This document shows, piece after piece, positions 2,805 to 50,003 of a stretch of DNA of 64,000 bases. How positions within the stretch are numbered: the first letter of the stretch is position 1; the number at the start of each line of letters is the position of its first letter. The notes beneath the pieces are model-generated. The model was not told the DNA's origin. It saw nothing but the letters and a program-made list of their open reading frames with translations, and did not search any database. Source of the stretch: a virus (taxonomy: Duplodnaviria; Heunggongvirae; Uroviricota; Caudoviricetes); IMG/VR virus record IMGVR_UViG_3300045988_158233; one strand, written 5' to 3'. The translations under genes and the position numbers were made by a program.

Positions 2805-2863
2805 GCCTGTTTCTGTATATAAATAATAAGTAACTTATTAAATATATACGGAAGCAGGTCTTT
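2805..2863 (+). repeat. long AT-rich-loop hairpin, copy 1 of a shared element
   Basis: arms gcctgtttctgtatat / atatacggaagcagg; near-identical arms at 49944..50003; contains TATAAATA. Confidence 0.45.
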
Positions 2864-2965
2864 TAAAAGACACCACCAGACCAACTCCCTTCCGTTTTCA
2901 CTTCCAAAAACTGACACCAGTCGCTATCATCCGCTCATTGTGATAAGTAAGTAACTACCTACCAG

Positions 2966-3715
2966 GTGAGCCACATGAGCCAAATCTTTTTCGATACCAT
3001 CGACAACGACCAGTACGACTTCATGACAGAGTGGAATACCGCTGTTATGGACAAGTGGGTCGCTGAAAACATTGGTTTGTCGCGCTGTAAAGACGAGGCT
3101 GAACTCTTCGAGACGAAGTGGTTTGATTACCGCGACATGCATCCTCTGATGGCCACCTGTCTATTTACGGAGGCATACAAACGTCAGTACTCAAATATCA
3201 TGCTGACGCACGGTCGCGAACACTTTGAAACAGCTCCGTTCACCACCGGGTTAAAACGCCTGCCTTATCAGGAGTTGTCGACTGCCAATAAAACGTCGCT
3301 ATGGAAAGCACGCCAGTTTGCTGACCGCTATTGCTGCTCATACGACTACTTTATCTCCACCGTTCTTTCCGCAGCTGCACGACGACTGTGGGACAAGCTG
3401 CCGCGTCCGCAGCATTTGTGGCAGCCAGAACTGATTGAGATATTTGAAGATAAATTAGCCAGACGCGCAACAACCCGTCTGGATGACTCTCTGGTTAGCT
3501 TTAAGCATATGGGAGACATGCAGTTCAACCCGATTCAGGAAAGCTATTTTGAGTGGATTCTGGAGCGTTTACGCGCCATCCCCCGCAGCAAGCGCATACG
3601 CGCAATTTTCTCCGCTATCTGGCTAATGGAAATCGTTCCAGAGCGCCTTATTTCCGCCCACTTTCCAGAAGAACTGGAAGAAGCACGGCGGTTTATTGAT
3701 CCCCTATCTAATTAA
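2966..3715 (+). CDS. hypothetical protein
   Basis: 249-aa ORF (GTG at 2966 or ATG at 2975). Confidence 0.5.
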   Translation: MSHMSQIFFDTIDNDQYDFMTEWNTAVMDKWVAENIGLSRCKDEAELFETKWFDYRDMHPLMATCLFTEAYKRQYSNIMLTHGREHFETAPFTTGLKRLPYQELSTANKTSLWKARQFADRYCCSYDYFISTVLSAAARRLWDKLPRPQHLWQPELIEIFEDKLARRATTRLDDSLVSFKHMGDMQFNPIQESYFEWILERLRAIPRSKRIRAIFSAIWLMEIVPERLISAHFPEELEEARRFIDPLSN

Positions 3716-3726
3716 CTAATACTAGA

Positions 3727-3739
3727 AAACAATTTGTTT
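3727..3739. promoter_or_regulatory. motif A palindrome AAACAA-T-TTGTTT
   Basis: aaacaatttgttt about 20 bp upstream of helicase ATG, followed by aaaggaaa RBS-like tract. Confidence 0.4.
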
Positions 3740-3758
3740 AAAAAACAAAGGAAAGCAC

Positions 3759-5099
3759 ATGACCGAACTTTGCCATACAGGACGCGGGCTGTCCGAAGAG
3801 TTTGATGAAGATTTCCAGAACAGACTGACGGCATATTTTTGTCGTGATCACGAGTTTCTTACTCGTGCGGGAGATCTGGTTGTGCCTAGCCAATTTGCCA
3901 ATGCGGCCAATGCCATATTGGTTAATATGGTTTCGGGCTATTACCGTATGTACAAGAGCGCGCCCTCTTCATCTGCAATTCTGGATATGCTTAAGCGTGC
4001 GAAACGCGATAAGACTATCCGTGAGGAACTATTCGCCGATGTTGTTGCTGCGTTTAAGCGCATCCTTGCAGAAAAATTGTCCGATACCTCGTACATGGTT
4101 GACCAGGTATCAACCTTCGCAAAAAGCGTAGCGTTTGATGATGCTCTGATTAAGGCTGCTGAACTGAAAGAGAAAGGCGACTTTCAGGGGGCGATGGCAA
4201 TCATGGCCAAGGTTCAGCAGATTGGATCGAACGAAGCGACCGGAATCTATGACTACTACACCTCCGCAAGTGAGCGATTGAAAGCGCGTGAATATGAGGC
4301 TTCAGAGGAGTATGTGCCAAACAGCATTACAACTGGACTCCCTCTGCTCGATAGGTTGTTGTACCAAAAAGGCTGGGCGAAGCGTGAAATGGTGCTCTTC
4401 ATGGGGTTCGCTAAATCCGGTAAATCGACCGCAATGGGTGAGTTTTCCATAAACGCAACGCTTGCTGGCTACAATGTTCTGTATCTCTCGCTGGAGGTTC
4501 ACACCACCATTTTATCCGACCGTTTTGATGCAAGATTGTCGGAGACAGAAATGTCCAAGCTAGTGGAACGGCGCGATGAGGTTCATCGTAAGTTGGCAGA
4601 GTTGGGAGCCACGAAGGGGATTGGTAGTTTGTGGGTGGTTGAGCGTCCGTCAGGAAGTATGTCACCGGCAGATCTGGACCGTATGCTTAACAGCATGAAA
4701 GCCAACGGCATGGTGCCTGACATGGTTGTTGTCGACTACGCAGATTTGATGCGTGCCAGTTATGACCTTCGTGATGATCGCGCCAACATTCGTAGTATCT
4801 ACACCGATTTACGTGCTCTTTATGACAAACATAACGTTGCTGGAATCACGGCATCGCAGACAAACCGTGAAGGTGGCGCGTCAGAAGTTGCCACAATGAT
4901 GCACGCCGCCGACAACATCGAAAAAGTACGTATTGCTGACCTGGTAATAACGATCAACAAAACCGAAGAAGAAGAAGCGAAAGGAGAGGCTCGTCTCTAC
5001 TTTGCTGGTTCACGTAACCAGCAGGGAGGGATCAGCATTCGCGTTAAACAAAACCTCGAACAAATGCGCTTCATTGAGCGAATCTTAGACGTTACCTAA
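3759..5099 (+). CDS. DnaB-family replicative DNA helicase (phage gp41-like)
   Basis: Walker A GFAKSGKST, Walker B VVVDYADL, SQTNREG motif, RecA-like C-terminal domain. Confidence 0.75.
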   Translation: MTELCHTGRGLSEEFDEDFQNRLTAYFCRDHEFLTRAGDLVVPSQFANAANAILVNMVSGYYRMYKSAPSSSAILDMLKRAKRDKTIREELFADVVAAFKRILAEKLSDTSYMVDQVSTFAKSVAFDDALIKAAELKEKGDFQGAMAIMAKVQQIGSNEATGIYDYYTSASERLKAREYEASEEYVPNSITTGLPLLDRLLYQKGWAKREMVLFMGFAKSGKSTAMGEFSINATLAGYNVLYLSLEVHTTILSDRFDARLSETEMSKLVERRDEVHRKLAELGATKGIGSLWVVERPSGSMSPADLDRMLNSMKANGMVPDMVVVDYADLMRASYDLRDDRANIRSIYTDLRALYDKHNVAGITASQTNREGGASEVATMMHAADNIEKVRIADLVITINKTEEEEAKGEARLYFAGSRNQQGGISIRVKQNLEQMRFIERILDVT

Positions 5100-5180
5100 A
5101 AAATAAGCGTGGAGAACACCTCCACGCTTGATTCATTGGTGAAACAACTTTTCTTTTGCCAAACCACAAAAGAAAAACAC

Positions 5181-6362
5181 ATGAGCCTTTATGTTATATC
5201 AACATTTAGGTTGGTCACAATATTGCCTGTTAAAAGTGGAATTATCGTGAGCGAGCTGAAAGAGCTAATTACCGAATTAGATTTTGAACAATGGTTGGAC
5301 ACTGAAGGTATCGTTTATCGACGTGGAGGCGTGAGTGCTCGCGGTCGTGAAGTGAATATCAAGGAGTGTCCGGTATGCGGCAGCTCCAACTGGAAGGTAT
5401 ATTTCAATCTGACCAGTGGCGTCGGCAAATGCTTCGCTGGTGATCATCCCGAAGAGATTCAGTTCAATAAGCTGGTCTTCCTCAAGCACTACAGCGGTAA
5501 ATCACGACGACAGTTCGAGGAATATGTGCAGAACGCTCTTCTTTCCCAGGGGTGGGCACCAAAGAAAGAAGAGATAGTGCTTACAAGCACAGTCGAGTTA
5601 GAGGGACCACTTGCACTCCCTCGTCATTACGAACTTCCTATAGATGGCCGTCTTCCAGACTATCTGGTTGAACGAAACATATCGCCTGAAATGGCAAAGT
5701 ATTTTGACCTACGATACTGCGTCGAAGGCAAGCACGCTTATGTAGATCCGTATACAGATCAGGTAAAAGGACAGATATTCGATATGCGAGTACTGATACC
5801 GGTTTACGATCTGGATGGGGTAATGAAGACATTTCAGGGACGAGACATTACCGGTACAGCAGACCGCCGCTACCTCTTTCCTATGCAGCTTCCAGCTTCA
5901 GGTAAGTTTCTCTACAACGGCCATAATGCAGTTGGCAAACAGACTGTAGTTGTCTGTGAGGGGGCGTTCGATGTTATGGGAGTTAAACGAGCTATTTTTG
6001 ACGAAGAAACATTACGTGATTACGTGGAACCAATAGGAACGTTCGGGATGCATCTATCTGGCAACACCACTCAGGATGCAGAAGATCAGCTGGGCGCGTT
6101 CCTGACGCTCAAGGCGCGTGGATTACGTAATGTGATCATGATGTGGGATAGTGAAAAGCAAGCTATACGCAACACTATGGCCGCAGCCAGGCGACTCACA
6201 AGTATTGGTCTTAATGTCAAAGTTGCGTGTTTGGGCGAGGAAGGACTCGACCCCGGCGATGCGACACCGGGGCAGATTATCAAAGCCTACTATTGCGCAA
6301 AACCTTATTCACGACAGCTTGAACTCTTAAGCAAGGTGAAAGGCATTGCAGCACTAGTTTGA
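5181..6362 (+). CDS. DNA primase (zinc-ribbon plus TOPRIM)
   Basis: CPVCGSS...C..GDH zinc motif, TOPRIM-like VVCEGAFDV and WDSE; start chosen at ATG after gaaaaacac; longer ORF starts 5109. Confidence 0.7.
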   Translation: MSLYVISTFRLVTILPVKSGIIVSELKELITELDFEQWLDTEGIVYRRGGVSARGREVNIKECPVCGSSNWKVYFNLTSGVGKCFAGDHPEEIQFNKLVFLKHYSGKSRRQFEEYVQNALLSQGWAPKKEEIVLTSTVELEGPLALPRHYELPIDGRLPDYLVERNISPEMAKYFDLRYCVEGKHAYVDPYTDQVKGQIFDMRVLIPVYDLDGVMKTFQGRDITGTADRRYLFPMQLPASGKFLYNGHNAVGKQTVVVCEGAFDVMGVKRAIFDEETLRDYVEPIGTFGMHLSGNTTQDAEDQLGAFLTLKARGLRNVIMMWDSEKQAIRNTMAAARRLTSIGLNVKVACLGEEGLDPGDATPGQIIKAYYCAKPYSRQLELLSKVKGIAALV

Positions 6363-7499
6363 ACCAGTATTAGTCACATACACATTGACCGAAAATGATT
6401 TAACTTCTGTATTGAAGTTGTCAGTCATTACCGCGAGGTAGGCATTCTTGGTATCTCTGAATTGCTTCAGGATGATTTGAACGTTATCGGTGCAAACAAA
6501 CGAGGTAGCCAGATTGCCTCCTTTCTCTGAAAAATCCTTCAGGAAGGTGCAGTCAACTTTGCCATCATTAGCGGTGAAGGTAGCATCATCACCCTGCCAG
6601 GTAAATGTAGCGTTAACGCCCTTATCAATGGATTTAGCAATAAGTCGCTGGGTGGCGGATTTTGTTTTGGCTTTGGAAGCCGGCGCTCGATATTTGCCGC
6701 TTTCTTTCAGTTCTGCAATGTAATCGCAGCCTCTTTTTTCTCCTTTATCGCAAGCAGTCTGATAAAGGTCGGCTGCTTTTTTATAGTCCTTTTTTACACC
6801 TTCCCCATTCTCATACATAATGCCAAGATTGGTTATGGCGTCGGCGTTTCCAAGTTCCGCTGCCTTTTTATACCACTTAACTGCTTCTGCATCATTGCGT
6901 TTAACGCCTAACCCATCATCGTATAGTATTCCTAATCCTATCATAGCTTCTGAACTGCCTTGGTCTGCCGCCTTTTTGTAATAAGTAAAAGCCTTTTTAT
7001 AATTCTTTTTAACGCCTTTACCATATTGGTAATACGCCCCAAGAACTGAAGTTGCTTTAACATACCCGGCATCAGAGGCTAGTTTGAAGTATTTAATGGC
7101 GAGTGCATGATCTACTTTACCAAGCATCCCCTTTTGATAAATAGCACCAAGATTGTTGTAGGCTCTACCTTCACGAGCATCCCCCGCAAGTTTGTAGTAC
7201 TCAACAGCTTTATTTAGGTCTTTATCTACACCCTCGCCAAATGTGTACATAACTCCAAGTGCATAATATGCTACTTTATCTCCCTTTTCTGCAGCTAGAT
7301 CAATCCACTTCTTGGCCTCAACTACATCCTTATCAAAACCATTGACACCATCAAAATAATTTGTACCTAACTCACTTTGTGCTGCGGTATCCCCTGCGGT
7401 AGCGGCTTCTATCAGCGTTTGTTTATTGTCTGCGTTAACGAATCCAGAGTTAAAAAGCAAAGTTAATGCCAGCAACGATGAAGATTTTATGTATTTCAT
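6354..7499 (-). CDS. secreted Sel1-repeat (TPR-like) protein
   Basis: N-terminal signal peptide MKYIKSSSLLALTLLFNSGFVNA, then repeated A..YY.LG..Y..G.GV.KD Sel1-type units. Confidence 0.75.
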   Translation of the reverse strand: MKYIKSSSLLALTLLFNSGFVNADNKQTLIEAATAGDTAAQSELGTNYFDGVNGFDKDVVEAKKWIDLAAEKGDKVAYYALGVMYTFGEGVDKDLNKAVEYYKLAGDAREGRAYNNLGAIYQKGMLGKVDHALAIKYFKLASDAGYVKATSVLGAYYQYGKGVKKNYKKAFTYYKKAADQGSSEAMIGLGILYDDGLGVKRNDAEAVKWYKKAAELGNADAITNLGIMYENGEGVKKDYKKAADLYQTACDKGEKRGCDYIAELKESGKYRAPASKAKTKSATQRLIAKSIDKGVNATFTWQGDDATFTANDGKVDCTFLKDFSEKGGNLATSFVCTDNVQIILKQFRDTKNAYLAVMTDNFNTEVKSFSVNVYVTNTGSN

Positions 7500-7732
7500 G
7501 TTTTTTTTTCTGTTGATATAGGATGAACAGTTTAGACGCGGCAAGCGTCAAGTGTGCGAAAAAGGGTACTTAAATTTAGTTAATATGTCAGCTTTGTTGA
7601 TTTAGTTTATGGTCGGTAAAGTTACTGGGAAACTAATAACCATAAGAAATAGTACGCCATTTAATTATTGTGGCACTGCTCGTGTTTTGATTAACTAATA
7701 CCTGCGATAAATATAAATAAAGGGAAGCCAAC

Positions 7733-8146
7733 ATGAGCAAAAATAAGCTGATTTTAACAGGAGCTTTATTGTCTTTGTTTGCTTTAGTGGGGTGTAAGCC
7801 TACAGACGAGAAGGCTATTGCTCTGGGCCAACAAGCAATTGCGGATGATATGAAAGATCCCACGTCGGTGATGTTTAGGAAAGATAAGTTTGTCAGGACT
7901 GATCATGACGATGGGAGTGTGACAGGCTTTGTGTGCGGAGAATTGAACGCCAAAAATGGCTTTGGTGCATACGTGGGCTATCACTCATATGTTGTTGAAC
8001 TCGAAATGAAACCAAAGGGCATGTTTTCGAAAGGGGTGGTATACAAAATCCTATCGAAGTCGTTGGCACCTAATGATCCTCATGACTTACAGCGTTATAA
8101 GCAGGTCTACAGAAAGATGTGCAACAGTGAGGCTGTAGCTCATTAA
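7733..8146 (+). CDS. putative lipoprotein
   Basis: Signal peptide with lipobox LVGC (MSKNKLILTGALLSLFALVGC). Confidence 0.6.
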   Translation: MSKNKLILTGALLSLFALVGCKPTDEKAIALGQQAIADDMKDPTSVMFRKDKFVRTDHDDGSVTGFVCGELNAKNGFGAYVGYHSYVVELEMKPKGMFSKGVVYKILSKSLAPNDPHDLQRYKQVYRKMCNSEAVAH

Positions 8147-8271
8147 TGGTGAATGCCGGGCAGACTATAAGCCCGGCATCTTCGTATAGGGAACTATTGC
8201 GCCTAAAATGATAAGTAGATACATACTTAGTTTTTTGTAAGAATACTTTCATCTGTTAGCTAGGAGTTGGT

Positions 8272-9048
8272 ATGAAAGACGAAATTCAGAAATTGGCCTG
8301 TGACATCATTGATAAAACAGGTTTAGAAATCAGCGAGGGCAGTCGACTAGACATCATTGGAAAGGCCGTCAATACAGCAATGAATCATATCGCTGCTCGT
8401 ATGGACGAGATCCCGCTACCAGGGTTGCCTTATCTGAAAGTTGAGTTACACGTATGGGGCGAACCTTCTTGTGCACGGCGTTCTGCATTAGTTGTTTTTA
8501 TTAGCAAAGAAAACCCGCTCAGTCTTAAAGTGCAGGTTGGAGCATGGCTTGATGGCAGAGTGATCTACACAAATACCGTTTTTTGTCTTTCAAACGACGA
8601 AACTATTGAAGCGGCCATTCAAGAAGCAGTTCTAGCAATGCGCAGCAGCGGTTTGATGAAGAATAACTACGAAGAGTACTTGCGTTCGATAAGTGGTGAA
8701 AAGACATTATCTCTGAAAGCAGATTTCGTTACCCCGAAAAATCTGTTGGAAGTTTTGATTAATAAAGGGGCTAATAGTGCCGTAAATGTAATCAGAGAGA
8801 GTGAATACGCGTCTCTTTGGGATATGTGCAAAAGCCAGTTGGATCTTGTGCATATCGTTGTTGATGCGGGGAAGGCTTGTGATGGCGTAATGGCGGAATT
8901 TGCTGGGAAGATGGTCAGGATTGCTAACGAATTACCGATGATTAAGCAAGAGGCTAAATCATACGCCACCAATCATGTCACAGAGCTTCTTGCCCCTTAT
9001 CGCTTAGAAAGCGATCAGCGCAAGATGATTAGCTGGGGAAGTTGGTAA
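8272..9048 (+). CDS. hypothetical protein
   Basis: 258-aa ORF. Confidence 0.5.
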   Translation: MKDEIQKLACDIIDKTGLEISEGSRLDIIGKAVNTAMNHIAARMDEIPLPGLPYLKVELHVWGEPSCARRSALVVFISKENPLSLKVQVGAWLDGRVIYTNTVFCLSNDETIEAAIQEAVLAMRSSGLMKNNYEEYLRSISGEKTLSLKADFVTPKNLLEVLINKGANSAVNVIRESEYASLWDMCKSQLDLVHIVVDAGKACDGVMAEFAGKMVRIANELPMIKQEAKSYATNHVTELLAPYRLESDQRKMISWGSW

Positions 9049-9115
9049 GCTCTCTGTGTGTCGTTTTTTACGCAAATAATGATAGGTAAGCACAAGATTA
9101 TTTCTGGCGGTAATT

Positions 9116-9586: not shown

Positions 9587-10905
9587 AAAAGTTGATCGCA
9601 CTTAAGCATAAGCTGGACGAAATGAAAGCTATGGGAACCAATGCAAAAAAAGAGGCATTGGCCAACATGGATGACTTTGAACAAAGCATGGTTTCATTGA
9701 TGCTCAACCCTTTCATCCGTTTTGGGGTAAAGAAATACAAAGTGGCAGAGCCGCTTAGTGAGTCCGTCCCAAGTGACGAAAAAGCCATTGATGTACTGAA
9801 TAAGCTGGCCTCTCGCGAGCTGACGGGGAACGCAGCAATAGCAGCTGTTGAGTCTATCGTGGCGTCAATGTGCGCCGATGGGCAGGACGTGTTCCGTCGT
9901 TTCCTCTTAAAAGACCCGAAAGCAGGTGTTGGGATTAGCCTATGCAACAAGGTTTTTGAAAATCCCATTCCGAAATTCGAGGTGCAGCTGGCGTCACCGT
10001 ATAAAGAAAAAGGCGACAAATACCCCTTCAAGCCAAATCCTAAAGCAAAATGGCCGATGATTGGCAGTCTTAAGCTCGATGGTTTGCGAGTAATTTGCGA
10101 GGTTATTGTTGACGAGGAAGAGGTTAACTTCCTTTCTCGTACTGGTAATCCAATCACGTCTCTCGATCACCTAAAGCCAGCAATGCTCGAATTAGGCAAA
10201 CTTTCAGGCCACAAACACATCTTCTTCGATGGTGAAGGAACAGCCGGTTCATTTAACCAGTCTGTATCTGCATTGCGCAAAAAGAACGTGCAGGCAATTG
10301 GCGCTATTTATCATGTTTTCGACTTCTTCCTACCGGAATGGCGGGCACAGGCTAAATCCAAAGAGTATGCAAAGACAGGTATGAAGCTGAAAGAGCGCCT
10401 GGCTATGCTGGTGGCGTTGTTTAAAAACGATCGCAGTGAAGGCTACGCACAAGACATTCACCTGCATCCGTTCTATATCATCCATAGCCACGAAGATTTC
10501 ATCGAACGCTTCATGAAACGCCTAGACGATAACGAAGAAGGGGAGATGGGCAAAGATCCGAACTCTGTTTACGAGTTTAAACGTACCCGCAGCTGGTGGA
10601 AGTTAAAAGACGAAGATTCAGAAGATGGTGAAATTATCGACTTTGAGCCGGGCGACCCGGACTCTGGTTTTGCCAACACGCTTGGAAAAATTGTTATTCG
10701 CCTTGAAAACGGTGTGATTGTTCGTGCGAGCGGCATTAAGCATAAATATCTGGACGAGATCTGGAACAACAAAGAGAAGTACCGTGGTCGTATTGTCGAG
10801 GTTCATTGTCACGAGAAAACGCCGGATGGCAGCTTACGCCACCCACGACTGAAATGGCCGCGTTGCTTACGCGATACAGAAGATCGAATCGGAGATAAAG
10901 AATGA
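9583..10905 (+). CDS. ATP-dependent DNA ligase
   Basis: Adenylation motif KLDGLR (KxDG), C-terminal ...SLRHPRLKWPR... typical of ATP ligases. Confidence 0.75.
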   Translation: MKKLIALKHKLDEMKAMGTNAKKEALANMDDFEQSMVSLMLNPFIRFGVKKYKVAEPLSESVPSDEKAIDVLNKLASRELTGNAAIAAVESIVASMCADGQDVFRRFLLKDPKAGVGISLCNKVFENPIPKFEVQLASPYKEKGDKYPFKPNPKAKWPMIGSLKLDGLRVICEVIVDEEEVNFLSRTGNPITSLDHLKPAMLELGKLSGHKHIFFDGEGTAGSFNQSVSALRKKNVQAIGAIYHVFDFFLPEWRAQAKSKEYAKTGMKLKERLAMLVALFKNDRSEGYAQDIHLHPFYIIHSHEDFIERFMKRLDDNEEGEMGKDPNSVYEFKRTRSWWKLKDEDSEDGEIIDFEPGDPDSGFANTLGKIVIRLENGVIVRASGIKHKYLDEIWNNKEKYRGRIVEVHCHEKTPDGSLRHPRLKWPRCLRDTEDRIGDKE

Positions 10906-12491: not shown

Positions 12492-12566
12492 GATGGTGTA
12501 GCTCAGCGGTAGAGCAGTTGGCTGTTAACCAACTGGTCGGTGGTTCGAATCCACCCACCATCGCCA
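12492..12566 (+). tRNA. tRNA-Asn (GTT)
   Basis: Cloverleaf by eye: acceptor GATGGTG/CACCATC, anticodon loop CTGTTAA, T-loop TTCGAAT, 3' GCCA. Confidence 0.85.
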
Positions 12567-12571
12567 ATTTA

Positions 12572-12658
12572 GGAGAGTTAGTCCGTAGAGGTAGCGGGGT
12601 AGACTGTAAATCTACTGTCATTGCGACTCGGGTGGTTCGACTCCATCACTCCCCACCA
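12572..12658 (+). tRNA. tRNA-Tyr (GTA), class II
   Basis: Anticodon stem GTAGA/TCTAC with loop CTGTAAA, long variable arm, T-loop TTCGACT, 3' ACCA; one A-C mismatch in acceptor stem, D-arm imperfect. Confidence 0.65.
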
Positions 12659-12662
12659 AATT

Positions 12663-12738
12663 GCCGGTTTAGCTCAGTTGGTAGAGCGCCTGCCTTGTAA
12701 GCAGGATGTCAGCGGTTCGAGTCCGTTAACCGGCACCA
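12663..12738 (+). tRNA. tRNA-Thr (TGT)
   Basis: Acceptor GCCGGTT/AACCGGC, anticodon stem CCTGC/GCAGG with loop CTTGTAA, T-loop TTCGAGT, 3' ACCA. Confidence 0.85.
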
Positions 12739-13234: not shown

Positions 13235-14455
13235 TTAATTAAAACCGAATGAATTAAGTTCTGCTTTGAATTTATCGACCATTTTTTCAACTTCGTTTAC
13301 AATTGCGTGAATCTCTTCGTCTTTTCTCGGATTAGAATTGAGGTCAAAATATGCCTTATATAAGGCATATTTTGACAAGCTTCCTTCAATATTTTCAGAG
13401 AAAATATTGGTACGACCATCAGTTAATAAGATATCAGCAGATCGGGAATTTAAATTATATTTATAGTAAATCTTTATTAGTCTGCTTATCTCTTTTTCAT
13501 TCTTGATTACCCTCTGTCTTTTACCAGCAATATTAAGACTCCAGCCTACATAACTAGTCAGATCGGAATTAAACTTACACACTTCCGCATCAGCTTTTTC
13601 CATATTTAGATTAATATTATTTCTCATGTGTAGCGGTAATTCGTTGAATTTTTGCTGTAAATGCTGTTTGCAGGGATTGTTGTAAGACCACAGAATTGCG
13701 AACGTAGCTCTTTGCATCCGGGTATTCAGATCGATGTTAAAGTTCTCACGATCACGAATCATTTCATCTACATAAAACTCTACAGCTTTTCGGTATTCTT
13801 TGTTAAAGATCTCGGTAACATACATTTCTAAATAATGGACTTTCGAGATTGCCTCATCAAAAAAAAGCTCACTCTCAAAGAAGTTGTATTTATTTAAGAG
13901 ATTAGAAAGTCTACTTAAGTCATAGGTTTTATTATTTTCAATATTAAGACCAAAAATGGCAATTAACAGACTTACTTTATGATTAATACTGCTACGTAAT
14001 TGAGCTATATAAATTCTCTTTTCATCTTCTGCTGATGACAGTAGATAAAACTCTTTATCTAAATAATTTAAAATTAGAATTATGTGATTTACATATTTAA
14101 TGTAAATAGGTTGTTTTGTTACATAATAATAAATGCTTTTGATGGAATTAATGCTCAATTTCGTATTAAACTCTTTGTCATTCAACAAAGTGTTATTTAC
14201 GTCCTCAAGTAATTTATCATGTTGCTCTAGTAATATTCCGTACCATTCCTTAAAAGAGGCTTTTTTCATTTCAAGAAGTGAATCTGCCGTTAATTGTGTT
14301 GCCTTCATTGCAGCTTTTGCACTATTTCTTGCCTCATAAGCAGCCCAAGCAGTAACAAAAGTAGCAAGTGAACCTATAGCCTCTTTGTATTCTTTAGCCA
14401 CATCCCAAAAAATAATAGTTATTACACACAATATGAGAATTAATATTAAAGGCAT
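13235..14455 (-). CDS. AT-rich membrane-anchored protein of unknown function (candidate accessory/exclusion gene)
   Basis: 406 aa, N-terminal TM helix LILILILCVITIIFW, rich in K/N/I/Y; markedly lower GC than neighbours; opposite strand to flanking genes. Confidence 0.6.
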   Translation of the reverse strand: MPLILILILCVITIIFWDVAKEYKEAIGSLATFVTAWAAYEARNSAKAAMKATQLTADSLLEMKKASFKEWYGILLEQHDKLLEDVNNTLLNDKEFNTKLSINSIKSIYYYVTKQPIYIKYVNHIILILNYLDKEFYLLSSAEDEKRIYIAQLRSSINHKVSLLIAIFGLNIENNKTYDLSRLSNLLNKYNFFESELFFDEAISKVHYLEMYVTEIFNKEYRKAVEFYVDEMIRDRENFNIDLNTRMQRATFAILWSYNNPCKQHLQQKFNELPLHMRNNINLNMEKADAEVCKFNSDLTSYVGWSLNIAGKRQRVIKNEKEISRLIKIYYKYNLNSRSADILLTDGRTNIFSENIEGSLSKYALYKAYFDLNSNPRKDEEIHAIVNEVEKMVDKFKAELNSFGFN

Positions 14456-43451: not shown

Positions 43452-44321
43452 ATGAACTTTACCAAACTGACTGACCACCTGAAACTTGCCACCGATCGAC
43501 TCATTGGATTTAAGCCAGAACCATATGAGTTGCATGAAGGTCATGGTGTAGCTACTGAAAGTATTTACAAGATGGTCGATCAGTTTCATGAACTCTTCCA
43601 GCATCCGAGACGCGTTATGCCGACACCAGAGCTGCTTCGTCTCCGTGCAAGCCTGATTCATGAAGAAGCTGTAGTGGAAGGTATTCCAGCCGCAATGAAT
43701 GGGGATATTGAGCAACTGCTGGATGCAATGGCCGACTTTTTATACGTTGGTGTTGGTACGATGGTCGCCATCAAAGGTGGTATTTCTACCGGCATGACCT
43801 ATTACACGCAGGAACAGAGCATTGATCGCTTTATGCAGACAATTTTTGTGCCCGGTAACACTGTTTTCGATGATATGGCAATGCCATTTCAGGAAGCTCG
43901 TGAGGCGTCATGTATGCTCGAAGAGCTGGCAGATAAACTTGAGAACAAGACTGTTAAGGATTCTGAGCTGATTCAGGAACTGCGCCGTGTCATGAACAAA
44001 ATCTATGTGGCGTGCATGATGACCTATCGACTGGCTGATTTCCTCGGTATCAATGTAGTCGAGCTGGTTGGCGAAATTCATCGGTCTAACATGACAAAAT
44101 TATGGCCTGCTGATGTCGAGGAACGTCGCCAGGCTGTGGCCAACTGCAAATACGACTCTTCAGACCTGGGATTTCGCCATGCTGATGGTACCGATAAGAT
44201 GATCGGTTTTCGAATTTCCGATGGAAAGATTCTGAAGTCTCCAACCTATAGTGATGTCGATTTATCCTCCTTTGTTGAGCAAGCTAAAGCCTCAGCAATG
44301 TACGGAATGATCAAAAAATAA
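43452..44321 (+). CDS. hypothetical protein (possibly MazG-like NTP pyrophosphohydrolase)
   Basis: Acidic helical motifs HEEAVVEG...GDIEQLLDAMADFLY; location within nucleotide-metabolism cluster. Confidence 0.35.
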   Translation: MNFTKLTDHLKLATDRLIGFKPEPYELHEGHGVATESIYKMVDQFHELFQHPRRVMPTPELLRLRASLIHEEAVVEGIPAAMNGDIEQLLDAMADFLYVGVGTMVAIKGGISTGMTYYTQEQSIDRFMQTIFVPGNTVFDDMAMPFQEAREASCMLEELADKLENKTVKDSELIQELRRVMNKIYVACMMTYRLADFLGINVVELVGEIHRSNMTKLWPADVEERRQAVANCKYDSSDLGFRHADGTDKMIGFRISDGKILKSPTYSDVDLSSFVEQAKASAMYGMIKK

Positions 44322-44464
44322 TTGTAGGTAGTTATCTATCTATGTATATTGTGTTAGCGCGTTAAATTCCTGAAACAACTATTCGTTTTGGTGGCCTATG
44401 GCCACCATTTTTTTATCTATCTGGCCTTGTTCCCTCAATAAATGTAAACTCACGTAATGAATAA

Positions 44465-45595
44465 GTGGTTACTTATCTTTGTGAGGTTTTTGTGTCACTC
44501 CTTTTGAATCGTGAGCATACGAACGGTCAGGTAACAAACGCATCGTATGCAAAAGTTATTGAGACGGTGCTTAAAAGCGGCGTGCAGGCTGATGATCGCA
44601 CAGGCACTGGTACTTTAAGCACCTGCTACGTTCCCTCTTACTACATGCTTACTGGTGGGACTGTGCCGCTTATTTCTGGAAAGGCGGTAAATCTTAAGCC
44701 ACTGCTTGTCGAACTTGAGTGGTATCTGAAAGGCACGGGCAACATCCAATTTCTCAAGGATAACGGCGTTAAGATTTGGGATGCATGGGCCGATGAGAAT
44801 GGCGATTTGGGGCCAGTTTACGGTAAGCAGTGGCGTCGATGGGAAGATACCCGCATCGTGAGCCATAGTGAATATCTGAGCAAGATCGCTACTTTCCGTG
44901 AACGCGGGTACAAAGTCGAGGGATACCTAGGTATCAGTGAAGATCGCGTAGTGCTGTCCCGTGAAATCGATCAGCTACAGCGTATTGTCGATACACTGCG
45001 CACGAACCCTACCGATCGTCGCATCATGCTTAACGCATGGAACGTAGGCGAGCTTGAGGATATGAAACTGCCACCTTGCCACTTTGTCTTCTCTTTGTGG
45101 AGTCGTGAGCTTGATTTTGAAACCCGTTTAACGATGGCAACTGACATTGGTCTTCAACACAGTCGCCTCGGTTACGAGTCTATCTACACCAAGATGCTAT
45201 ACGATCTGGAGATGGACGGCAGTGTTACTGAAGCTGAACTGGATGAACTTGGAATCCCCAAACGCATCCTCAACTCCTGCCTCGTACAGCGTAGCGTAGA
45301 CACTTTTGTTGGTATGCCATTCAATATTGCTGGCTATGGCATTCTCACTCATTTTCTCGCGAAGATTACGGGTCACATGGCCGGTGCATTTGTGCATTTT
45401 GGCTTTGACGTGCATTTGTACAATAACCACATGGAAAGTGTGCGTGAGCTAATGCAACGACAGGCTCCAGAGCATTCAGATCCGGTCGTTATATTCCCTA
45501 ATGAATGGTCTGAGCTGGATGATTTCAAATGGGACGAGATTCTTATTCTTGGCTATGCCCCTCTACCGTGGATCAAGGTTCCAGTGGCGGTGTGA
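44465..45595 (+). CDS. thyA: thymidylate synthase
   Basis: DRTGTGTLS and catalytic LPPCHF motifs; no in-frame ATG, start GTG 44465 or GTG 44492. Confidence 0.8.
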   Translation: MVTYLCEVFVSLLLNREHTNGQVTNASYAKVIETVLKSGVQADDRTGTGTLSTCYVPSYYMLTGGTVPLISGKAVNLKPLLVELEWYLKGTGNIQFLKDNGVKIWDAWADENGDLGPVYGKQWRRWEDTRIVSHSEYLSKIATFRERGYKVEGYLGISEDRVVLSREIDQLQRIVDTLRTNPTDRRIMLNAWNVGELEDMKLPPCHFVFSLWSRELDFETRLTMATDIGLQHSRLGYESIYTKMLYDLEMDGSVTEAELDELGIPKRILNSCLVQRSVDTFVGMPFNIAGYGILTHFLAKITGHMAGAFVHFGFDVHLYNNHMESVRELMQRQAPEHSDPVVIFPNEWSELDDFKWDEILILGYAPLPWIKVPVAV

Positions 45596-45596
45596 T

Positions 45597-46010
45597 ATGG
45601 CAAGAGGTATGTATGTCTTATGCGAAATTGAAGGTGTGCTGGCAAATACCAGCCATCGTAAATCTGTATCTGACTCGGATGCAGGCCAATTCATTGCCGG
45701 TGATGAACTCATTTTCCCCACCAGCCGTATGTTGCGTGGTTTTGCTCGCTCAGGGGCTGAAGTGGTGCTTATCAGTAGCCGCTCTGAAACTCTTGAAGCG
45801 CCCACTAAACGATGGCTGAAAGATTTTGGTGTTGATTACGACTGGCTTCATCTCGTACCGAATAGCACTAGTTATGAGAAGCATATTAAGCGCACATTAG
45901 CGGAGCATAAAGGCGATCTGCTTATCGCTGCGCTGGTGCACGATCCTCGACTCCGTGCCGCTTTAGCTGACTCTCATCATAGACCGGTCATCTATGAGGT
46001 GAGCAAATGA
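45597..46010 (+). CDS. hypothetical protein
   Basis: 138 aa from ATG overlapping thyA stop (TGATATG). Confidence 0.4.
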   Translation: MARGMYVLCEIEGVLANTSHRKSVSDSDAGQFIAGDELIFPTSRMLRGFARSGAEVVLISSRSETLEAPTKRWLKDFGVDYDWLHLVPNSTSYEKHIKRTLAEHKGDLLIAALVHDPRLRAALADSHHRPVIYEVSK

Positions 46011-46483
46011 AGATGATAGCTGCTGTTGGCCGTAACTATGAGATCGGCATAGCGAACGAACTGCCCTGGCGTTGTTCTACCGATCTGAAGCTATTTAAGA
46101 GACTCACCAAAAACGCCACTGTCGTTATGGGGCGTAAAACGATGGAAAGTCTCAAACGCCCTCTTCCAGAGCGTCATAACCTCGTTTTGACGCGCTCTCA
46201 TGGCTTTGTACCAAATGGATTCTACCCTGCTGGTGTGGATGATGTGTTGCGATTACCAGAGCCTGTGTGGGTGATTGGCGGGAAACAAATTTACTCGCTA
46301 TTCATGCCGCATGTTGAAGAGATTTGGCTCTCCCACATCGACGTTGATGTGCCAAACGCCGATGCATTCTTCCCGGCAAGCATGATGCGTAATTTAGGCT
46401 TTGTGCCTGTTGAAACAGCTTATACCCAACGAGCCAGCGAGGAAGAGCCTGGCTTTTCGCAGATCGTATACAGAAGGTCGTAA
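46007..46483 (+). CDS. dihydrofolate reductase
   Basis: MIAAVGRNYEIGIANELPW, VVMGRKTMESL, VIGGKQIY. Confidence 0.8.
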   Translation: MKMIAAVGRNYEIGIANELPWRCSTDLKLFKRLTKNATVVMGRKTMESLKRPLPERHNLVLTRSHGFVPNGFYPAGVDDVLRLPEPVWVIGGKQIYSLFMPHVEEIWLSHIDVDVPNADAFFPASMMRNLGFVPVETAYTQRASEEEPGFSQIVYRRS

Positions 46484-47127
46484 TGGATTACCGGATTGGG
46501 ATCACTGGTGCTCAGGGCAGTGGGAAAACAACCCTGGCTAAATATATCGACAAACATTACGGAATCCCTTACGTGGATGCTGGTGTCGGAAGTTTGATGA
46601 GCCGCCTCGGTGTTCGAGTAGGTGAGTCTATGCCTCTATATGAGCGGCTTCAGATTCAAATGGAAATAGCAAAGCATATAGAGCTACTTACACGTGGTGT
46701 TGAAGGCTTTGTTATCGATCGCACACCTGCTGATGTTATGGCCTACACGTTGGATTTGGTCGGCCATACAAATGAAGATCGGTGTATTGAGTTAGCCCTC
46801 GATATCGAAAAGTTTTGCCACAAAACTGCTATTTCAAACTTTAACGCCATTGCTGGCCTACGCCCGGGGGTCTCTCTCTCAGAGCGAGATTACTTGCGGT
46901 CACAACGAGCATCATTAGACCGTCTGTATGTCGCTCGTATTGATGCGTTGATGTGCGGGGAACTGACAAAAATTCACCTGCATCCGCAAAGGGGAGATCT
47001 GCAAACCTTCGTCGTTTCCAACCGGTATCGCACAGTTGAAGCAAGAGCCAGATCAGTAATGAGAATGCTCGATAACGCGGTAGAAAAGATAGAAAACCGC
47101 TTCTGTGGCCGAGTTACCGTTCATTAG
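46483..47127 (+). CDS. P-loop nucleotide/nucleoside kinase (dNMP-kinase-like)
   Basis: Walker A GITGAQGSGKTT at N-terminus, ~210 aa, in nucleotide-metabolism operon. Confidence 0.5.
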   Translation: MDYRIGITGAQGSGKTTLAKYIDKHYGIPYVDAGVGSLMSRLGVRVGESMPLYERLQIQMEIAKHIELLTRGVEGFVIDRTPADVMAYTLDLVGHTNEDRCIELALDIEKFCHKTAISNFNAIAGLRPGVSLSERDYLRSQRASLDRLYVARIDALMCGELTKIHLHPQRGDLQTFVVSNRYRTVEARARSVMRMLDNAVEKIENRFCGRVTVH

Positions 47128-47188
47128 AAATTGTTCGCCTCTTCGACATTGCGACAATAAAACTCTCAAAATGGGTTAAGGATAAAAA

Positions 47189-47608
47189 ATGTTTAGTGAA
47201 CTGTTGCTTGAAGATGAACTGGATCGGAAAACAACAGAGGCTTTGATTCGTGTAGCGGACGAACATTCCCGGTCGCTTATGAGCGATCGAGAGGCTCGTC
47301 TGGCTATTCGTGCCATATTCGAAACTGTGCAGGGGCTTGTTGGCGCACAAGTAGGTGAAGCCATTAACATCGCCATGTCTCAGTTCAGTGAAGGCAGTAT
47401 AAAGCCTCTGTTTCCTATGCATTTGATGCTGGCTGGTGGCACGGTGCTTTACGTCTCTGTTTGTCTGGATAGCAACCAAATCAACATTCTCAACACGGCG
47501 TCAGGTAAGTGGAAAGATCCGGTTGTCTGTGAAACCAGTGAAGAAACTTTGAAAAAAGCGGCTCAATTTGTACGTAGCGCACTACTTAAGGGCGCTAAGA
47601 AGTTGTAA
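47189..47608 (+). CDS. hypothetical protein
   Basis: 139-aa ORF. Confidence 0.4.
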   Translation: MFSELLLEDELDRKTTEALIRVADEHSRSLMSDREARLAIRAIFETVQGLVGAQVGEAINIAMSQFSEGSIKPLFPMHLMLAGGTVLYVSVCLDSNQINILNTASGKWKDPVVCETSEETLKKAAQFVRSALLKGAKKL

Positions 47609-47617
47609 GGAGTTTTG

Positions 47618-48175
47618 ATGACAACGATTGTTGCAGGCATCGATATCGAGTCTACGGGGCTGGATTTCCTTTCTGGTCATAAAATTATTGAAATCGCAAT
47701 TACCCGCTATGAACTGGAGACACAGAGACATATTGATAGTCTGGAGATGCGTTTTAACCCTCGCAGGAACATAGATCCGAAAGCTCAAGCCGTTCATGGC
47801 ATTTCATTAGAACAGCTGGCAGCTGAACCTTTGTTGTCAAATCATGCCAGCGAAATTGGCGCTTATATGGAGGCATGTAGTGCGTGGGTTGCTCATAACG
47901 GCGAAGCGTTTGATATACCATTTATTAGACACGAGTTTTCAGGGTATGGAGTAAGACTGCCAGACGTTCCCGTTATAGATACTATGTTATCGGGATTGTG
48001 GGCCACAGAAGACGGCAAACGTCCTCGCCTTGAAGAATTGGCCTTCTCTCTTGGCTTTATATACGATCATACCAAAGCACATAGTGCCTTATATGACACA
48101 AACTTAATGATGCAATGCTTCTTTAAGGCACGTAATAAATACGGATTTTTTAAATTACCCTCTGAAATTGTGTAA
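47618..48175 (+). CDS. DnaQ-like 3'-5' exonuclease (DEDDh)
   Basis: Exo motifs GIDIESTG, HNGEAFDIPF, HSALYD; RBS aaggag before ATG 47618. Confidence 0.75.
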   Translation: MTTIVAGIDIESTGLDFLSGHKIIEIAITRYELETQRHIDSLEMRFNPRRNIDPKAQAVHGISLEQLAAEPLLSNHASEIGAYMEACSAWVAHNGEAFDIPFIRHEFSGYGVRLPDVPVIDTMLSGLWATEDGKRPRLEELAFSLGFIYDHTKAHSALYDTNLMMQCFFKARNKYGFFKLPSEIV

Positions 48176-48180
48176 AACAA

Positions 48181-48219
48181 AAGCCTGCTTTAAAGATAGT
48201 TTGAAGCAGGCTTTCTTTT
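48181..48219 (+). terminator. rho-independent terminator
   Basis: aagcctgcttt...aagcaggcttt inverted repeat then T-run. Confidence 0.6.
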
Positions 48220-48335
48220 AAAGAACAGTCGCCTTTCAATCATTTCCTGCCTGTATTTAATACTTTTCCGCCTGATAGGTTTAGTCAAAATGTAGCCATC
48301 GAAACGCAAATGCAACTAAACAGAAGGAGACTTAC

Positions 48336-49145
48336 ATGAGTTCGGTTGAAAATGTAATGACAAATGATGATCTGGATGAGCTGACAGCCATGTTGCAATC
48401 ACTTGATGAACCAGTAAAAAAAGCTGCACAGGTTGAAAATACTGATGATATTGACGATCTGCTTCTCGGCCTCGATGCTGGCGTAGCCATGAGTTCTGAT
48501 GATGTTGCCGAAGAACTGTTCAATGAAGAAAAAGTAGGTGATTTCAGCTCCGCTTTAAATGAGTTGGAATTAGCTCATGAGCCTATAAACGTAATTAACG
48601 CTGAAAGTGTTGAAGCTGCCGTAAACGAGCCAGAACAATTGGGATTTATTGAGGTTGAAGAGTGTGTTGAGGTTAATGAAGAATTAAAAGTTCAACAGTC
48701 AAATGATAGCAATACAAATAAAAAAGCTCGTACTGCAAGAGGTCCTCGTTTTACTTTAAGTGATAAAGATGATTCGTTTTTCAATAAAGCAGGCTTAGAA
48801 AAAGATATTTTCTTAGACGCTTACGATAACGCGCCTGTCAAAGCAAAGGATAAGATATTAAACCTTCTTAATTGGTTTAGCGGAGGTCCAGATATTAGTG
48901 TTTACACGGTAATTTCCATGAGACACCTTCTCACAGAAAAGAAGGCTACAAGTAATAGTATTAAGATTGCTTTAATGAGCAATCCAGAAAAACCGTATCC
49001 GCTTAACACTGCGTCAACTCAGGCTGGGCAAATGATGGCTGTATTTCCAGCTACAGGAATTGCCGTTAGAGACGGTGGAAATCTAACATTGAACGAAGAA
49101 TCACCGATCGTTAAGAAGTTTGTCGCGGAGTACACTATTGGATGA
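48336..49145 (+). CDS. acidic protein of unknown function
   Basis: 269 aa; N-terminal ~120 aa very rich in D/E. Confidence 0.45.
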   Translation: MSSVENVMTNDDLDELTAMLQSLDEPVKKAAQVENTDDIDDLLLGLDAGVAMSSDDVAEELFNEEKVGDFSSALNELELAHEPINVINAESVEAAVNEPEQLGFIEVEECVEVNEELKVQQSNDSNTNKKARTARGPRFTLSDKDDSFFNKAGLEKDIFLDAYDNAPVKAKDKILNLLNWFSGGPDISVYTVISMRHLLTEKKATSNSIKIALMSNPEKPYPLNTASTQAGQMMAVFPATGIAVRDGGNLTLNEESPIVKKFVAEYTIG

Positions 49146-49298
49146 CGTTCCCCTACTGAAAATAAAGCCCATAGAGAGCTTTATAGTGCTGGGTAAGCCA
49201 ATCACATACCCAGCACCACAAAAACGCGCCAGAGAGCTTCTCGTTTGCATTTCTGGCGCGTTTTATTTGATTGCCATACATAAAATCAAATGCAAAAA

Positions 49299-49318
49299 TA
49301 GGTAATCACTTACCTATT
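49299..49318. promoter_or_regulatory. motif B perfect palindrome ATAGGTAA-N4-TTACCTAT
   Basis: ataggtaatcacttacctat, 10-30 bp upstream of methyltransferase ATG. Confidence 0.45.
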
Positions 49319-49922
49319 GAGAAAGAAGATGATTGCAGCCGAAAAAATCAAAAAGCGAAAGCGCGACAACTCTCTTCGTGACCTCTGGAGAACACCTGAC
49401 TGGCTGTTTAATGCCATTCAACGTTATCTGGGAGTGACATTTGATGTTGACGTTGCCTGCAATAAGGACAATGCAAAGCTGCCTATTTTCATAGGCGTTG
49501 AGCGCGATGCTTTGAAATCTGAATGGGGGCAGCCAGGTACAATTGCCTTCCTCAATCCACCCTACTCCAAAATCTCCCCCTGGATTGATGCGGCTATACG
49601 TGAGCAGGCTCGCGGAGTTACAACAGTGATGCTAATTCCTCAATCCCTCGATACAAAGTGGTATGAGCGTGCAACAGAGTGTGCGAATGAGACGATTATT
49701 CTGTCTGGTGGCCGCGTAGCGTTTGTCGAGCCTGACGTCAATCTGGGTCAGGTAGAAGTAAACATCAACCCCGGTGGCAGTATGCTCGTTGTTTTTCGCG
49801 GATTCTGTCAGGACGCTGGGCACTCTATAAGCAAGATCCCTTTGGACGTCATGAAAAGTCTGGGAGGGTATGATCCTGCGAATGTGATCAGGAAAAAAAG
49901 ACCATCAAAGAAGGCTGCTTAG
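49317..49922 (+). CDS. phage-type DNA N6-adenine methyltransferase (Dam-like)
   Basis: FLNPPYS catalytic motif, ~200 aa; probable start ATG 49329. Confidence 0.7.
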   Translation: MRKKMIAAEKIKKRKRDNSLRDLWRTPDWLFNAIQRYLGVTFDVDVACNKDNAKLPIFIGVERDALKSEWGQPGTIAFLNPPYSKISPWIDAAIREQARGVTTVMLIPQSLDTKWYERATECANETIILSGGRVAFVEPDVNLGQVEVNINPGGSMLVVFRGFCQDAGHSISKIPLDVMKSLGGYDPANVIRKKRPSKKAA

Positions 49923-49943
49923 TTTGCTCTGGCGTCTGTAATT

Positions 49944-50003
49944 AGCCTGCTTCTGTATATATAAATAACTACATATTAATTATTAATATACGGAAGCAGG
50001 CTG
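49944..50003 (+). repeat. long AT-rich-loop hairpin, copy 2 of shared element
   Basis: arms agcctgcttctgtatat / atatacggaagcaggct; 3' arm identical to copy at 2843..2858. Confidence 0.45.

Follow-up and report, generated by a model that had tools for sequence, protein, structure and literature searches.

A conserved terminator-like hairpin at three gene boundaries of SSU5-like phage-plasmids

The boundary hairpin and its three positions

The DNA analyzed here, a stretch of 64,000 nucleotides (nt) of the virus record IMGVR_UViG_3300045988_158233 (called the window in the following), contains two near-identical long hairpins. The left one, copy A, lies behind a ParA operon with a variable gene cassette and in front of a phrog_2500 gene, a DnaB-like helicase gene and a primase gene. 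The right one, copy B, directly follows the stop codon of a Dam methyltransferase gene. Together with a third copy located outside of the window they represent a conserved terminator-like boundary hairpin, which belongs to a known class of elements and is not a new kind of biology. Sequence comparison identified the window as part of an Escherichia coli SSU5-like phage-plasmid of ~110 kb. Positions 1500-3100 are 100% identical to the plasmid pRHBSTW-00849_2 (CP056300.1; 110,291 bp, IncFIB RepA), and this near-identical complete plasmid served as whole-genome reference; the window corresponds to its minus strand and most annotated genes are read in the plus direction of the window. The phages Cyrano, PhiR41_1 and CMS-2020a match positions 432-6000 at ~98% over 72% of the stretch and positions 47000-53000 at 97-98% over the full length, and Salmonella phage SSU5 and the Klebsiella relatives match at about 76-82%.

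Both hairpins reported in the initial annotation of the window are real (coordinates of these and all other features are collected in Table 1). In copy A the centre between the arms comprises 23 nt, consists of A and T only and is palindromic itself. With the centre included, the repeat finder reports arms of 26 nt which are 85% complementary and only 1 nt apart, making copy A the longest inverted repeat within 80 nt of the entire window. For copy B it reports 17-nt arms with 94% complementarity around a 25-nt A/T-only centre. The foot of the stem, CCTGC/GCAGG, is rich in G+C and the upper stem is made of A/T pairs. A search of the window for the arm pattern, allowing up to three mismatches, gave matches with zero or one mismatch only at the four arm positions of copies A and B, all remaining matches having three mismatches; the observed number of matches was reached by none of 100 dinucleotide-shuffled controls. 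Folded as RNA the sense strand reaches -31.9 kcal/mol for copy A (z = -8.4) and -30.4 kcal/mol for copy B (z = -6.6), as compared to -21.8 and -27.0 kcal/mol for the antisense strand. The antisense fold of copy A is so much weaker because two of its pairs are G.U wobbles which can form on the plus strand only. The T-run said to follow each hairpin is present as well, albeit modest, with four consecutive T in each case (TCTTTTAAAAG after copy A, CTGTTTTGT after copy B). A comparison of the entire window with Rfam at the gathering threshold retrieved three tRNAs only and no family covering the hairpins; these tRNA genes are consecutive (RF00005; 75.5, 38.1 and 74.9 bits). A full-text literature search did not yield a description of the boundary hairpin.

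The genome-wide search for further copies, which had been proposed along with the two hairpins, revealed the third copy, copy C, at position 64460-64514 of CP056300.1 in the same orientation as copies A and B. It is situated between a small gene and the genes of the small and large terminase, directly upstream of the small terminase. A profile built from five copies and run against CP056300.1 and SSU5 found exactly three sites in each of the two genomes, all in gene sense; the only other matches with E <0.01 were two partial ones arising from the artificial junction of the SSU5 record ends. Copies A, B, and C occupy the identical three gene junctions in both genomes. When one genome per species was scanned, two Kluyvera genomes proved to have three copies each, again at these junctions, and Yersinia pestis (pMT1) and Buttiauxella one copy each. 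BLAST located the element in 800 plasmid records from Klebsiella, Escherichia, Enterobacter, Yersinia, Salmonella, Citrobacter, and Cronobacter, 759 of which are classified as non-mobilizable, and, within the phage collection, in every one of the 12 SSU5-like records that matched. An exact-pattern scan of IMG/VR returned at least 120 loci. With three syntenic copies per genome in four genomes, 800 plasmid records and arms that are kept while the flanks diverge, the suggestion that the hairpins are a functional element and not a product of chance is borne out. The third copy, the conserved flank motifs described below and the family-wide conservation go beyond what had been noted before.

The element begins 22-24 nt past the preceding co-directional stop codon (copy B of the window, copy A of Cyrano, copy C of CP056300.1 and copy A of SSU5). 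In the window the Dam stop codon TAG is followed by the arm of copy B 21 nt later and by the conserved CCTG 23 nt later.

Two database records open at or near the element. The SSU5 record starts within hairpin C, where the loop passes into the right arm (NC_018843.1, 103260-103299 joined to 1-20), and the record of Cyrano (OV696614.1; small terminase at 135-767) begins at essentially the same place. Most likely both record starts reflect an assembly break at a palindrome present in three copies rather than true ends of the genome. This element of enterobacterial phage-plasmids was also met twice in a metagenome bin labeled 'Bacillota bacterium' (contigs L146 and L148), and the contigs have probably been mis-binned.

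Sequence plan, variation and surroundings of the element

Sorting 110 copies by their flanks into the classes A, B, and C revealed a common plan. In 5'->3' direction it consists of the motif [G/T]TCTGGGAG, a gap, the 15-nt arm CCTGCTTCTGTATAT, an all-A/T centre, the arm ATATACGGAAGCAGG, a spacer of 13-30 nt and the motif CTCCCAGAC. The first motif precedes the core by 13-16 nt (by 15-41 nt in class A), the centre between the conserved arms measures ~21-27 nt and is partly self-pairing, and the downstream motif conforms to (C)CCAGA[C/A]C. As the flank motifs GTCTGGGAG and CTCCCAGAC are inverted relative to each other they can lengthen the hairpin to 100-125 nt. The resulting outer helix GTCTGGG(AG)/(CU)CCCAGAC is part of the minimum-energy structures of variants from classes B and C (-39 to -62 kcal/mol), with its 3' strand 13-30 nt beyond the stem and hence past a termination point. 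The outer helix is degenerate in the E. coli copy B, where only CTCTGG is found upstream and a second CCCAGAC follows further downstream, and it is absent in several copy A variants including that of the window. A possible, distant upstream partner of CCAGACC exists there in the form of a TCTGGGG located 39 nt upstream of the core. Variation in the distance of the distal motif from the inner hairpin is tolerated, which suits a folded nucleic acid better than protein sites in a fixed array.

The three classes differ in the sequence following the stem. Counted over the 9 nt that follow the stem, the 14 distinct class A variants contain 4-7 T. In class B, where the count starts behind the conserved CAGG foot, the number is mostly 6, and in class C it is just 2-4, a T-tract being absent. 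In the 36 distinct variants the arm positions that deviate from Watson-Crick pairing on the sense strand are G.U in 32 and C.A in 5 cases, and all five C.A cases belong to class B copies of Salmonella and Klebsiella lineages. Since the retrieval pattern itself constrained the arms, this strand bias is a lean and not a proof. In addition the core, that is the loop together with the asymmetry of the arms, is inverted relative to the flanks in L047 (class B) and L151 (class A), as if by recombination between the element's own arms. The C.A mismatches and the flipped cores weaken the G.U asymmetry and we therefore do not use it as proof of a role at the RNA level.

More distant relatives were reached via homologues of the flanking proteins. 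At 64% protein identity (L134) the canonical arms are still kept and the loop is different. In Raoultella the arms at site A read CCTGCTCCCCAT and ATGGGAAGCAGG, with both partners replaced in three pairs (G-C to C-G, U-A to A-U and A-U to U-A), and the same lineage-specific left arm (CCTGCTCCTCAT) recurs at site C inside a rearranged double element. Copy B of Raoultella was sought for a test of concerted evolution, and the neighboring small protein was not found in that genome. Morganella-type genomes (L132 and L135) carry at site A a plain terminator, GGGAGCA..TGCTCC(C) with a T-run, a Klebsiella lineage (L141) has a diverged hairpin at site C followed by the strong T-run ATTTTTTGTGTTTTTTGG, and the most distant genome has unrelated hairpins at these boundaries. 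As the boundaries are occupied by hairpins also in relatives without the canonical element, a hairpin at these places is older than the present sequence. The palindrome at site A of a distant Klebsiella relative (L136) was considered as a co-evolved counterpart and was rejected, it being an unrelated palindrome that arrived together with the neighboring cassette gene. This perfect 40-bp palindrome, CAGGTTAATGCTAATGTA cgca TACATTAGCATTAACCTG, stands upstream of a small hypothetical gene in L136 (~9837-9877) and L137 (4001-4049); it occurs in 4146 plasmid records, mostly of conjugative plasmids and many of them at 90-100% identity, and is found near the IncFII-family repA in the IncF-type plasmid pHK17a.

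Between the ParA/small-ParB operon and hairpin A there is a hot spot of gene exchange, in which relatives carry unrelated genes. In the window the slot is filled by a lineage-specific gene (phrog_22329) whose 357-aa product has no Pfam match. More than a dozen unrelated versions of the left flank of copy A were seen among the relatives, with similarity ending at the hairpin foot or immediately beyond the TCTGG motif. Since the left flanks are wholly different between relatives, copy A marks the fixed right border of an accessory-gene slot, which is useful for annotating such cargo. Near copy B, a short ordinary intrinsic terminator follows a 3'-5' exonuclease gene; its 9-bp foot is identical to that of copy B, and a counterpart with the same foot was not found in SSU5.

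In L004 a second stem-loop, AGAGCGC atggac GCGCTCT followed by GTGTGTTTT, lies between hairpin C and the start of the small-terminase gene (14343-14400, minus strand) and directly precedes the ribosome-binding site of this gene. Raoultella and Klebsiella relatives (L139 and L141) have a hairpin of other sequence at this place. The small terminase shows no similarity to the neighboring ParB-N proteins, and the idea of a shared DNA-binding domain was dropped.

Table 1. Location of the hairpins, their motifs and surrounding features in the window
Feature	Position	Strand	Remarks
Copy A, core hairpin	2806..2858	+	left arm CCTGTTTCTGTATAT 2806-2820, centre 2821-2843, right arm ATATACGGAAGCAGG 2844-2858
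T-tract after copy A	2859..2869	+	TCTTTTAAAAG
Downstream flank motif of copy A	2876..2882	+	CCAGACC
Possible upstream partner of CCAGACC at copy A	2760-2766		TCTGGGG
TATAAATA in the loop of copy A	2818-2825		T4 late-promoter sequence
Copy B, core hairpin	49944..50002	+	left arm AGCCTGCTTCTGTATAT 49944-49960, centre 49961-49985, right arm ATATACGGAAGCAGGCT 49986-50002
T-tract after copy B	50003..50012	+	GTTTTGTATC
Downstream flank motif of copy B	50020..50027	+	CCCAGACC
Second CCCAGAC at copy B	50061-50067		
Degenerate upstream partner at copy B	49927-49932		CTCTGG
TATAAATA in the loop of copy B	49960-49967		T4 late-promoter sequence
Dam-family adenine methyltransferase gene	49317..49922	+	PF05869, E = 2.4e-37; stop codon TAG 49920-49922, ends just before copy B
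phrog_2500 gene	2966..3715	+	function unknown; first gene after copy A
DnaB-like helicase gene	3759-5099		after the phrog_2500 gene; primase next
Gene-exchange slot	1567-2805		ParA/small-ParB operon to hairpin A
phrog_22329 cassette gene	1627..2700	-	357 aa, lineage-specific; in the hypervariable slot left of copy A
Short ordinary intrinsic terminator	48175..48219	+	AGCCTGCTTTAAA gatag TTTGAAGCAGGCT then TTCTTTT; right after the 3'-5' exonuclease gene
Promoter/operator cassette of parA	491-503		
Promoter/operator cassette of the helicase	3727-3739		
Further promoter/operator cassettes	17137, 30706, 42188, 52410, 53139, 57679		
Three consecutive tRNA genes	12492-12735		RF00005

Transcription and possible functions

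Published RNA sequencing (RNA-seq) data for a Cyrano lysogen in the LF82 study (PMC9928086, S1 Table) allow a look at transcription across copy A. The normalized counts are 49.8 for ParA, 89.1 for CYRAN_29 and 54.6 for CYRAN_30, and past copy A they are 6.2 for CYRAN_31, 21.1 for the helicase and 10.6 for the primase; the log2 columns fall from 10.42 to 2.56 and from 9.85 to 3.06 across the hairpin (PMC9928086). At the gene level this amounts to a 9-fold to over 100-fold drop. The intergenic region between CYRAN_30 and CYRAN_31 comprises 193 nt, and hairpin A is the sole terminator-like feature in the part that was inspected. The genes on both sides of copies B and C are at background in these data (PMC9928086). 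We infer termination as the cause of the drop across copy A; any function at B and C, and an extension or processing of the read-through RNA, we infer likewise. The proposal of the initial annotation that the hairpins are terminators thus finds support in the RNA-seq step at copy A and is plausible for copy B from its position behind the Dam gene and its T-tract, and it does not extend to copy C, which has no T-tract. Its other proposal, a regulatory RNA structure, is possible.

On balance we lean towards the view that the boundary hairpin is a family-specific intrinsic terminator or insulator located at the module boundaries of SSU5/pHCM2/pMT1-type phage-plasmids. The transcribed inner hairpin (about -30 kcal/mol, G+C-rich foot) would form a factor-independent terminator, which at copies A and B would be completed by the T-tract. 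Copy A would end the late/lysis/partition arc, with the replication genes staying silent in the lysogen, and copy B would end the arc of replication and nucleotide metabolism. Copy C, lacking a T-tract, is expected to be read through and could be an intercistronic structure with which the late operon begins. Read-through RNA would carry the distal CCCAGAC strand, which could pair with GTCTGGG into the extended structure of 100-125 nt in the manner of lambda sib/tI, and judged by its geometry only this structure could be a substrate of RNase III.

A number of observations weigh against termination as the function of the element. As copy C lacks the T-tract, canonical intrinsic termination is not the function common to all three copies. 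A simple terminator scan which required a loop of 3-8 nt called neither hairpin of the window, because the loop exceeds 8 nt and the tail is too poor in T; indeed a loop of 21-27 nt is far beyond that of typical terminators. The arm sequence is near-invariant across the three paralogues and across genera, which a pure structural constraint does not predict, and the arm variant of Raoultella is common, at least partly, to copies A and C. Both facts point to gene conversion or to a sequence-specific partner. The argument from strandedness is not clean in view of the sense-strand C.A mismatches in class B of Salmonella and Klebsiella and the flipped cores. Covariation is suggestive and weak because the arms hardly vary. 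In a count over 16 distinct arm pairs with 500 shuffles, 91.7% of the arm cells were paired as compared to 89.5% in the shuffles, and the three pairs with a double-sided change all come from the Raoultella sequence, with 13-20 of the 500 shuffles being as good. Changes on both arms moreover cannot separate a hairpin from a co-evolving dimer site. Finally, the RNA-seq support is per gene, from one relative and from the lysogen only, and in the window itself the gene directly left of copy A is on the opposite strand. A plain terminator leaves unexplained why the sequence is held across paralogues and genera, why the Raoultella variant is shared and why the flank motifs are conserved in sequence.

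The initial annotation had also drawn attention to TATAAATA, the T4 late-promoter sequence, and this is indeed present in both loops. The embedded T4-type late promoter itself is not sustained by the comparison, for copy A of Cyrano is without TATAAATA, the core is flipped in two lineages, and the other TATAAATA sites of the window are mostly on the minus strand (4 of 5, most annotated genes being on the plus strand). The prevalence of TATAAATA on the sense strand (32 of the 36 distinct variants) is expected from common descent with rare flips. The loop of copy A in Cyrano contains a perfect TATAAT, yet in the lysogen the downstream CYRAN_31 is silent. The genome possesses a promoter family of its own, of the sigma-70 type, whose members read TTGAC(g), 17 nt, GATAAT, ~10 nt, AGAAAACAANTTGTTT, ribosome-binding site and ATG. 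The corresponding pattern has 48 matches on both strands of CP056300.1 and SSU5, about half of them in full context. The B-to-C arc is densely populated with these cassettes; the structural-gene arc running from C to A contains none. The 13-bp palindrome of the cassette is probably the operator of a global phage-plasmid regulator. Next to the hairpins of the window a simple promoter scan found no adjoining sigma-70 promoter, and a conserved -10 box (A at -11, T at -7) was not found after copies A or B. At copy C the right foot of the hairpin ends 19 nt before a CCTAAT which aligns with the GATAAT box of the family and is without the critical A at -11, and two operator-like motifs AAACAAGTTG(G/T)TT lie between hairpin C and the small-terminase gene. 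In promoter-coupled terminators the -10 box follows the T-tract and is not located in the loop, and the DNA of the stem takes the part of the -35 element (Fletcher et al., bioRxiv 10.64898/2026.08.19.745784). This architecture is absent from copies A and B and only loosely present at copy C.

Among the other explanations we take most seriously that the palindrome acts as double-stranded DNA and is a site for a phage-plasmid protein, a serious rival even though we rate it as rather unlikely; the protein could be a repressor or insulator, or an activator of the late promoter, seated at -32 to -86 and replacing the -35 box, or the palindromes could form an N15-like dispersed centromere. A protein site would account for the dyad symmetry, which with the inverted flank motifs extends over ~100 bp, for arms conserved in sequence across paralogues and genera with the Raoultella variant in both copies A and C, and for the toleration of flipped cores and sense-strand C.A mismatches, and the changes on both arms are expected of a co-evolving dimer site just as well. 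The positions could fit too: copy C occupies the -35 position before CCTAAT and is followed by the operator-like motifs, copy A is downstream of the ParA operon and copy C is downstream of an operon encoding a ParB-N-domain protein and an ABC-ATPase. There is also a precedent in the LexA site at the yobI terminator, where one palindrome is both terminator stem and transcription-factor site (Fletcher et al., bioRxiv 10.64898/2026.08.19.745784). However, the distance from the core to the distal CCAGAC is not constant (13-30 nt), and both the arm motif and CCAGAC are missing from the parA promoter region, the expected target of a type Ib ParB (window 260-540; a generic AAACAAGTTGTTT operator is found there instead). 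A conserved -10 box is missing after copies A and B, half-sites of 15 bp at a distance of ~40 bp from centre to centre are unusual for a dimer, and nested palindromy that continues into the very centre is seen more typically in folded strands. In a related proposal, to which we likewise attach a small probability, the three palindromes would be the sites of a factor encoded by the phage-plasmid, either an antiterminator or processing factor that binds RNA or a gatekeeper that binds DNA, gating all three boundaries at once. Such a dedicated factor would explain the near-invariant sequence, the arm variant shared between paralogues and the conserved CCAGAC flanks; if it exists, the palindromes would be the cis half of a so far undescribed system gating the transition from lysogeny to lysis in very common enterobacterial phage-plasmids, and the partner protein would provide a handle on the switch between plasmid and phage life.

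The remaining explanations appear less probable still. That the main role is RNA processing or retroregulation, with the 100-125 nt duplex as an RNase III site at which polycistronic RNA would be cut at the three boundaries, as in the early region of T7, or the upstream message be destabilized upon read-through, as at lambda sib, we consider improbable. The extended folds do hold helices of 16-18 bp, 5-7 bp and 7-11 bp, copy C without its T-tract would have to be read through, and the RNase III sites of T7 likewise share sequence with one another, but the outer helix is degenerate in copy B of E. coli and missing from several variants of copy A, and the steep drop across copy A is also explained by plain termination. 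A promoter in the A/T-rich loop, be it of the T4 late type or a sigma-70 -10 box, from which transcripts would start inside the hairpin and escape the terminator, is more doubtful again. In its favor are the sense-strand TATAAATA of most variants, a next start codon about 85-115 nt downstream in all three classes, and the fact that promoter-terminator coupling is common in bacteria (Fletcher et al., bioRxiv 10.64898/2026.08.19.745784). This is countered by Cyrano copy A, where TATAAT takes the place of TATAAATA and CYRAN_31 is at or below background in the lysogen, by the flipped loops of L047 and L151, by the four of five other TATAAATA sites of the window that are on the non-coding strand, by the ordinary TTGAC-17-GATAAT type of the genome's own promoters, and by the coupled architecture itself, with its -10 box after the T-tract; moreover the left flank of copy A, which would have to provide the -35 region, is hypervariable. 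Very improbable, finally, is a packaging site (pac/cos), an origin of lytic replication or a selfish palindromic repeat without own function, similar to enterobacterial repetitive intergenic consensus (ERIC) sequences or miniature inverted-repeat transposable elements (MITEs). One could point to copy C directly upstream of the small terminase and the records of SSU5 and Cyrano opening there, to copy A preceding the helicase and primase genes, to an A/T-only centre that could melt easily, and to the ERIC-like size and imperfect palindromy. Three cut sites, however, would fragment the genome, and the record starts are explained by an assembly break. The start of the phage record PQ492289, seemingly beside copy B, was rejected as a hint at packaging, as this record simply begins at an ATG. 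A mobile repeat of the MITE or ERIC kind was discarded because the same three junctions are occupied in the E. coli, Salmonella, and Kluyvera elements, the positions being fixed and syntenic in every genome examined, and a signature of terminal repeats or target duplications was not seen. Resemblances to attC, XerCD/dif sites and the MotA box, noticed by eye, were dropped since the defining cores or spacings do not fit.

Phage-plasmids of the SSU5/pHCM2/pMT1 type are widely distributed in E. coli, Klebsiella, Salmonella, Enterobacter, and Yersinia pestis, and the carriage of resistance genes is reported for them. The boundary hairpins together with the promoter/operator family provide a first transcription-unit map of these elements, comprising a late arc (C to A), a replication arc (A to B) and a promoter-rich regulatory arc (B to C), and the hairpins will be useful for their annotation.

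Comparison with known systems

ERIC sequences, also called intergenic repeat units (IRU), are imperfect palindromes of about 100-125 nt in enterobacterial DNA which are transcribed together with their neighbors, and in this respect they are similar to the boundary hairpin. In contrast to ERIC the positions of our element are fixed and syntenic and it is confined to one phage-plasmid family. To our knowledge there is no similarity to the ERIC core.

The phage-plasmid N15 carries four scattered palindromes of ~16 bp, IR1-IR4, as a sopC-like centromere bound by the type Ia protein SopB. A few identical inverted repeats dispersed among the phage genes of a phage-plasmid and two adjoining par-type operons are found in our case too. 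The core of the boundary hairpin, however, measures 53-57 bp, its ParA is of the small type Ib and the motif is not present in the parA promoter.

Compared to the promoter-coupled terminators described by Fletcher et al., copy C has its right foot at the -35 position relative to CCTAAT; copies A and B are unlike them in having no -10 box behind the hairpin, and the best candidate, copy C, is the very copy without a T-tract.

The RNase III sites in the early and late mRNAs of phage T7 offer another parallel, as several intercistronic hairpins that are alike in sequence separate the functional gene blocks of one genome. Unlike the boundary hairpin, the T7 sites contain a characteristic internal loop, and transcription is not terminated at them. 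A further parallel is sib/tI of phage lambda, a terminator hairpin that is extended by read-through into an RNase III site. In the boundary hairpin as well, an inner hairpin is accompanied by a distal strand, CCCAGAC, which would be present only in read-through RNA and could pair with the upstream GTCTGGG. There is no sequence similarity between the two, our element is present in three copies instead of one, and the likeness is one of fold geometry.

The boundary hairpin shares with intrinsic terminators the stable G+C-rich foot, the location 22-24 nt after a stop codon in gene sense, a modest T-tract at copies A and B and the drop in transcript level across copy A. It departs from them by its long stem of 15-26 bp and an A/T-only centre of 21-27 nt in place of the usual loop of 3-8 nt, by the missing T-tract of copy C and by the conserved inverted motifs which flank the core. 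Whereas ordinary terminators drift in sequence, the sequence of this element has been kept at three loci and across genera.

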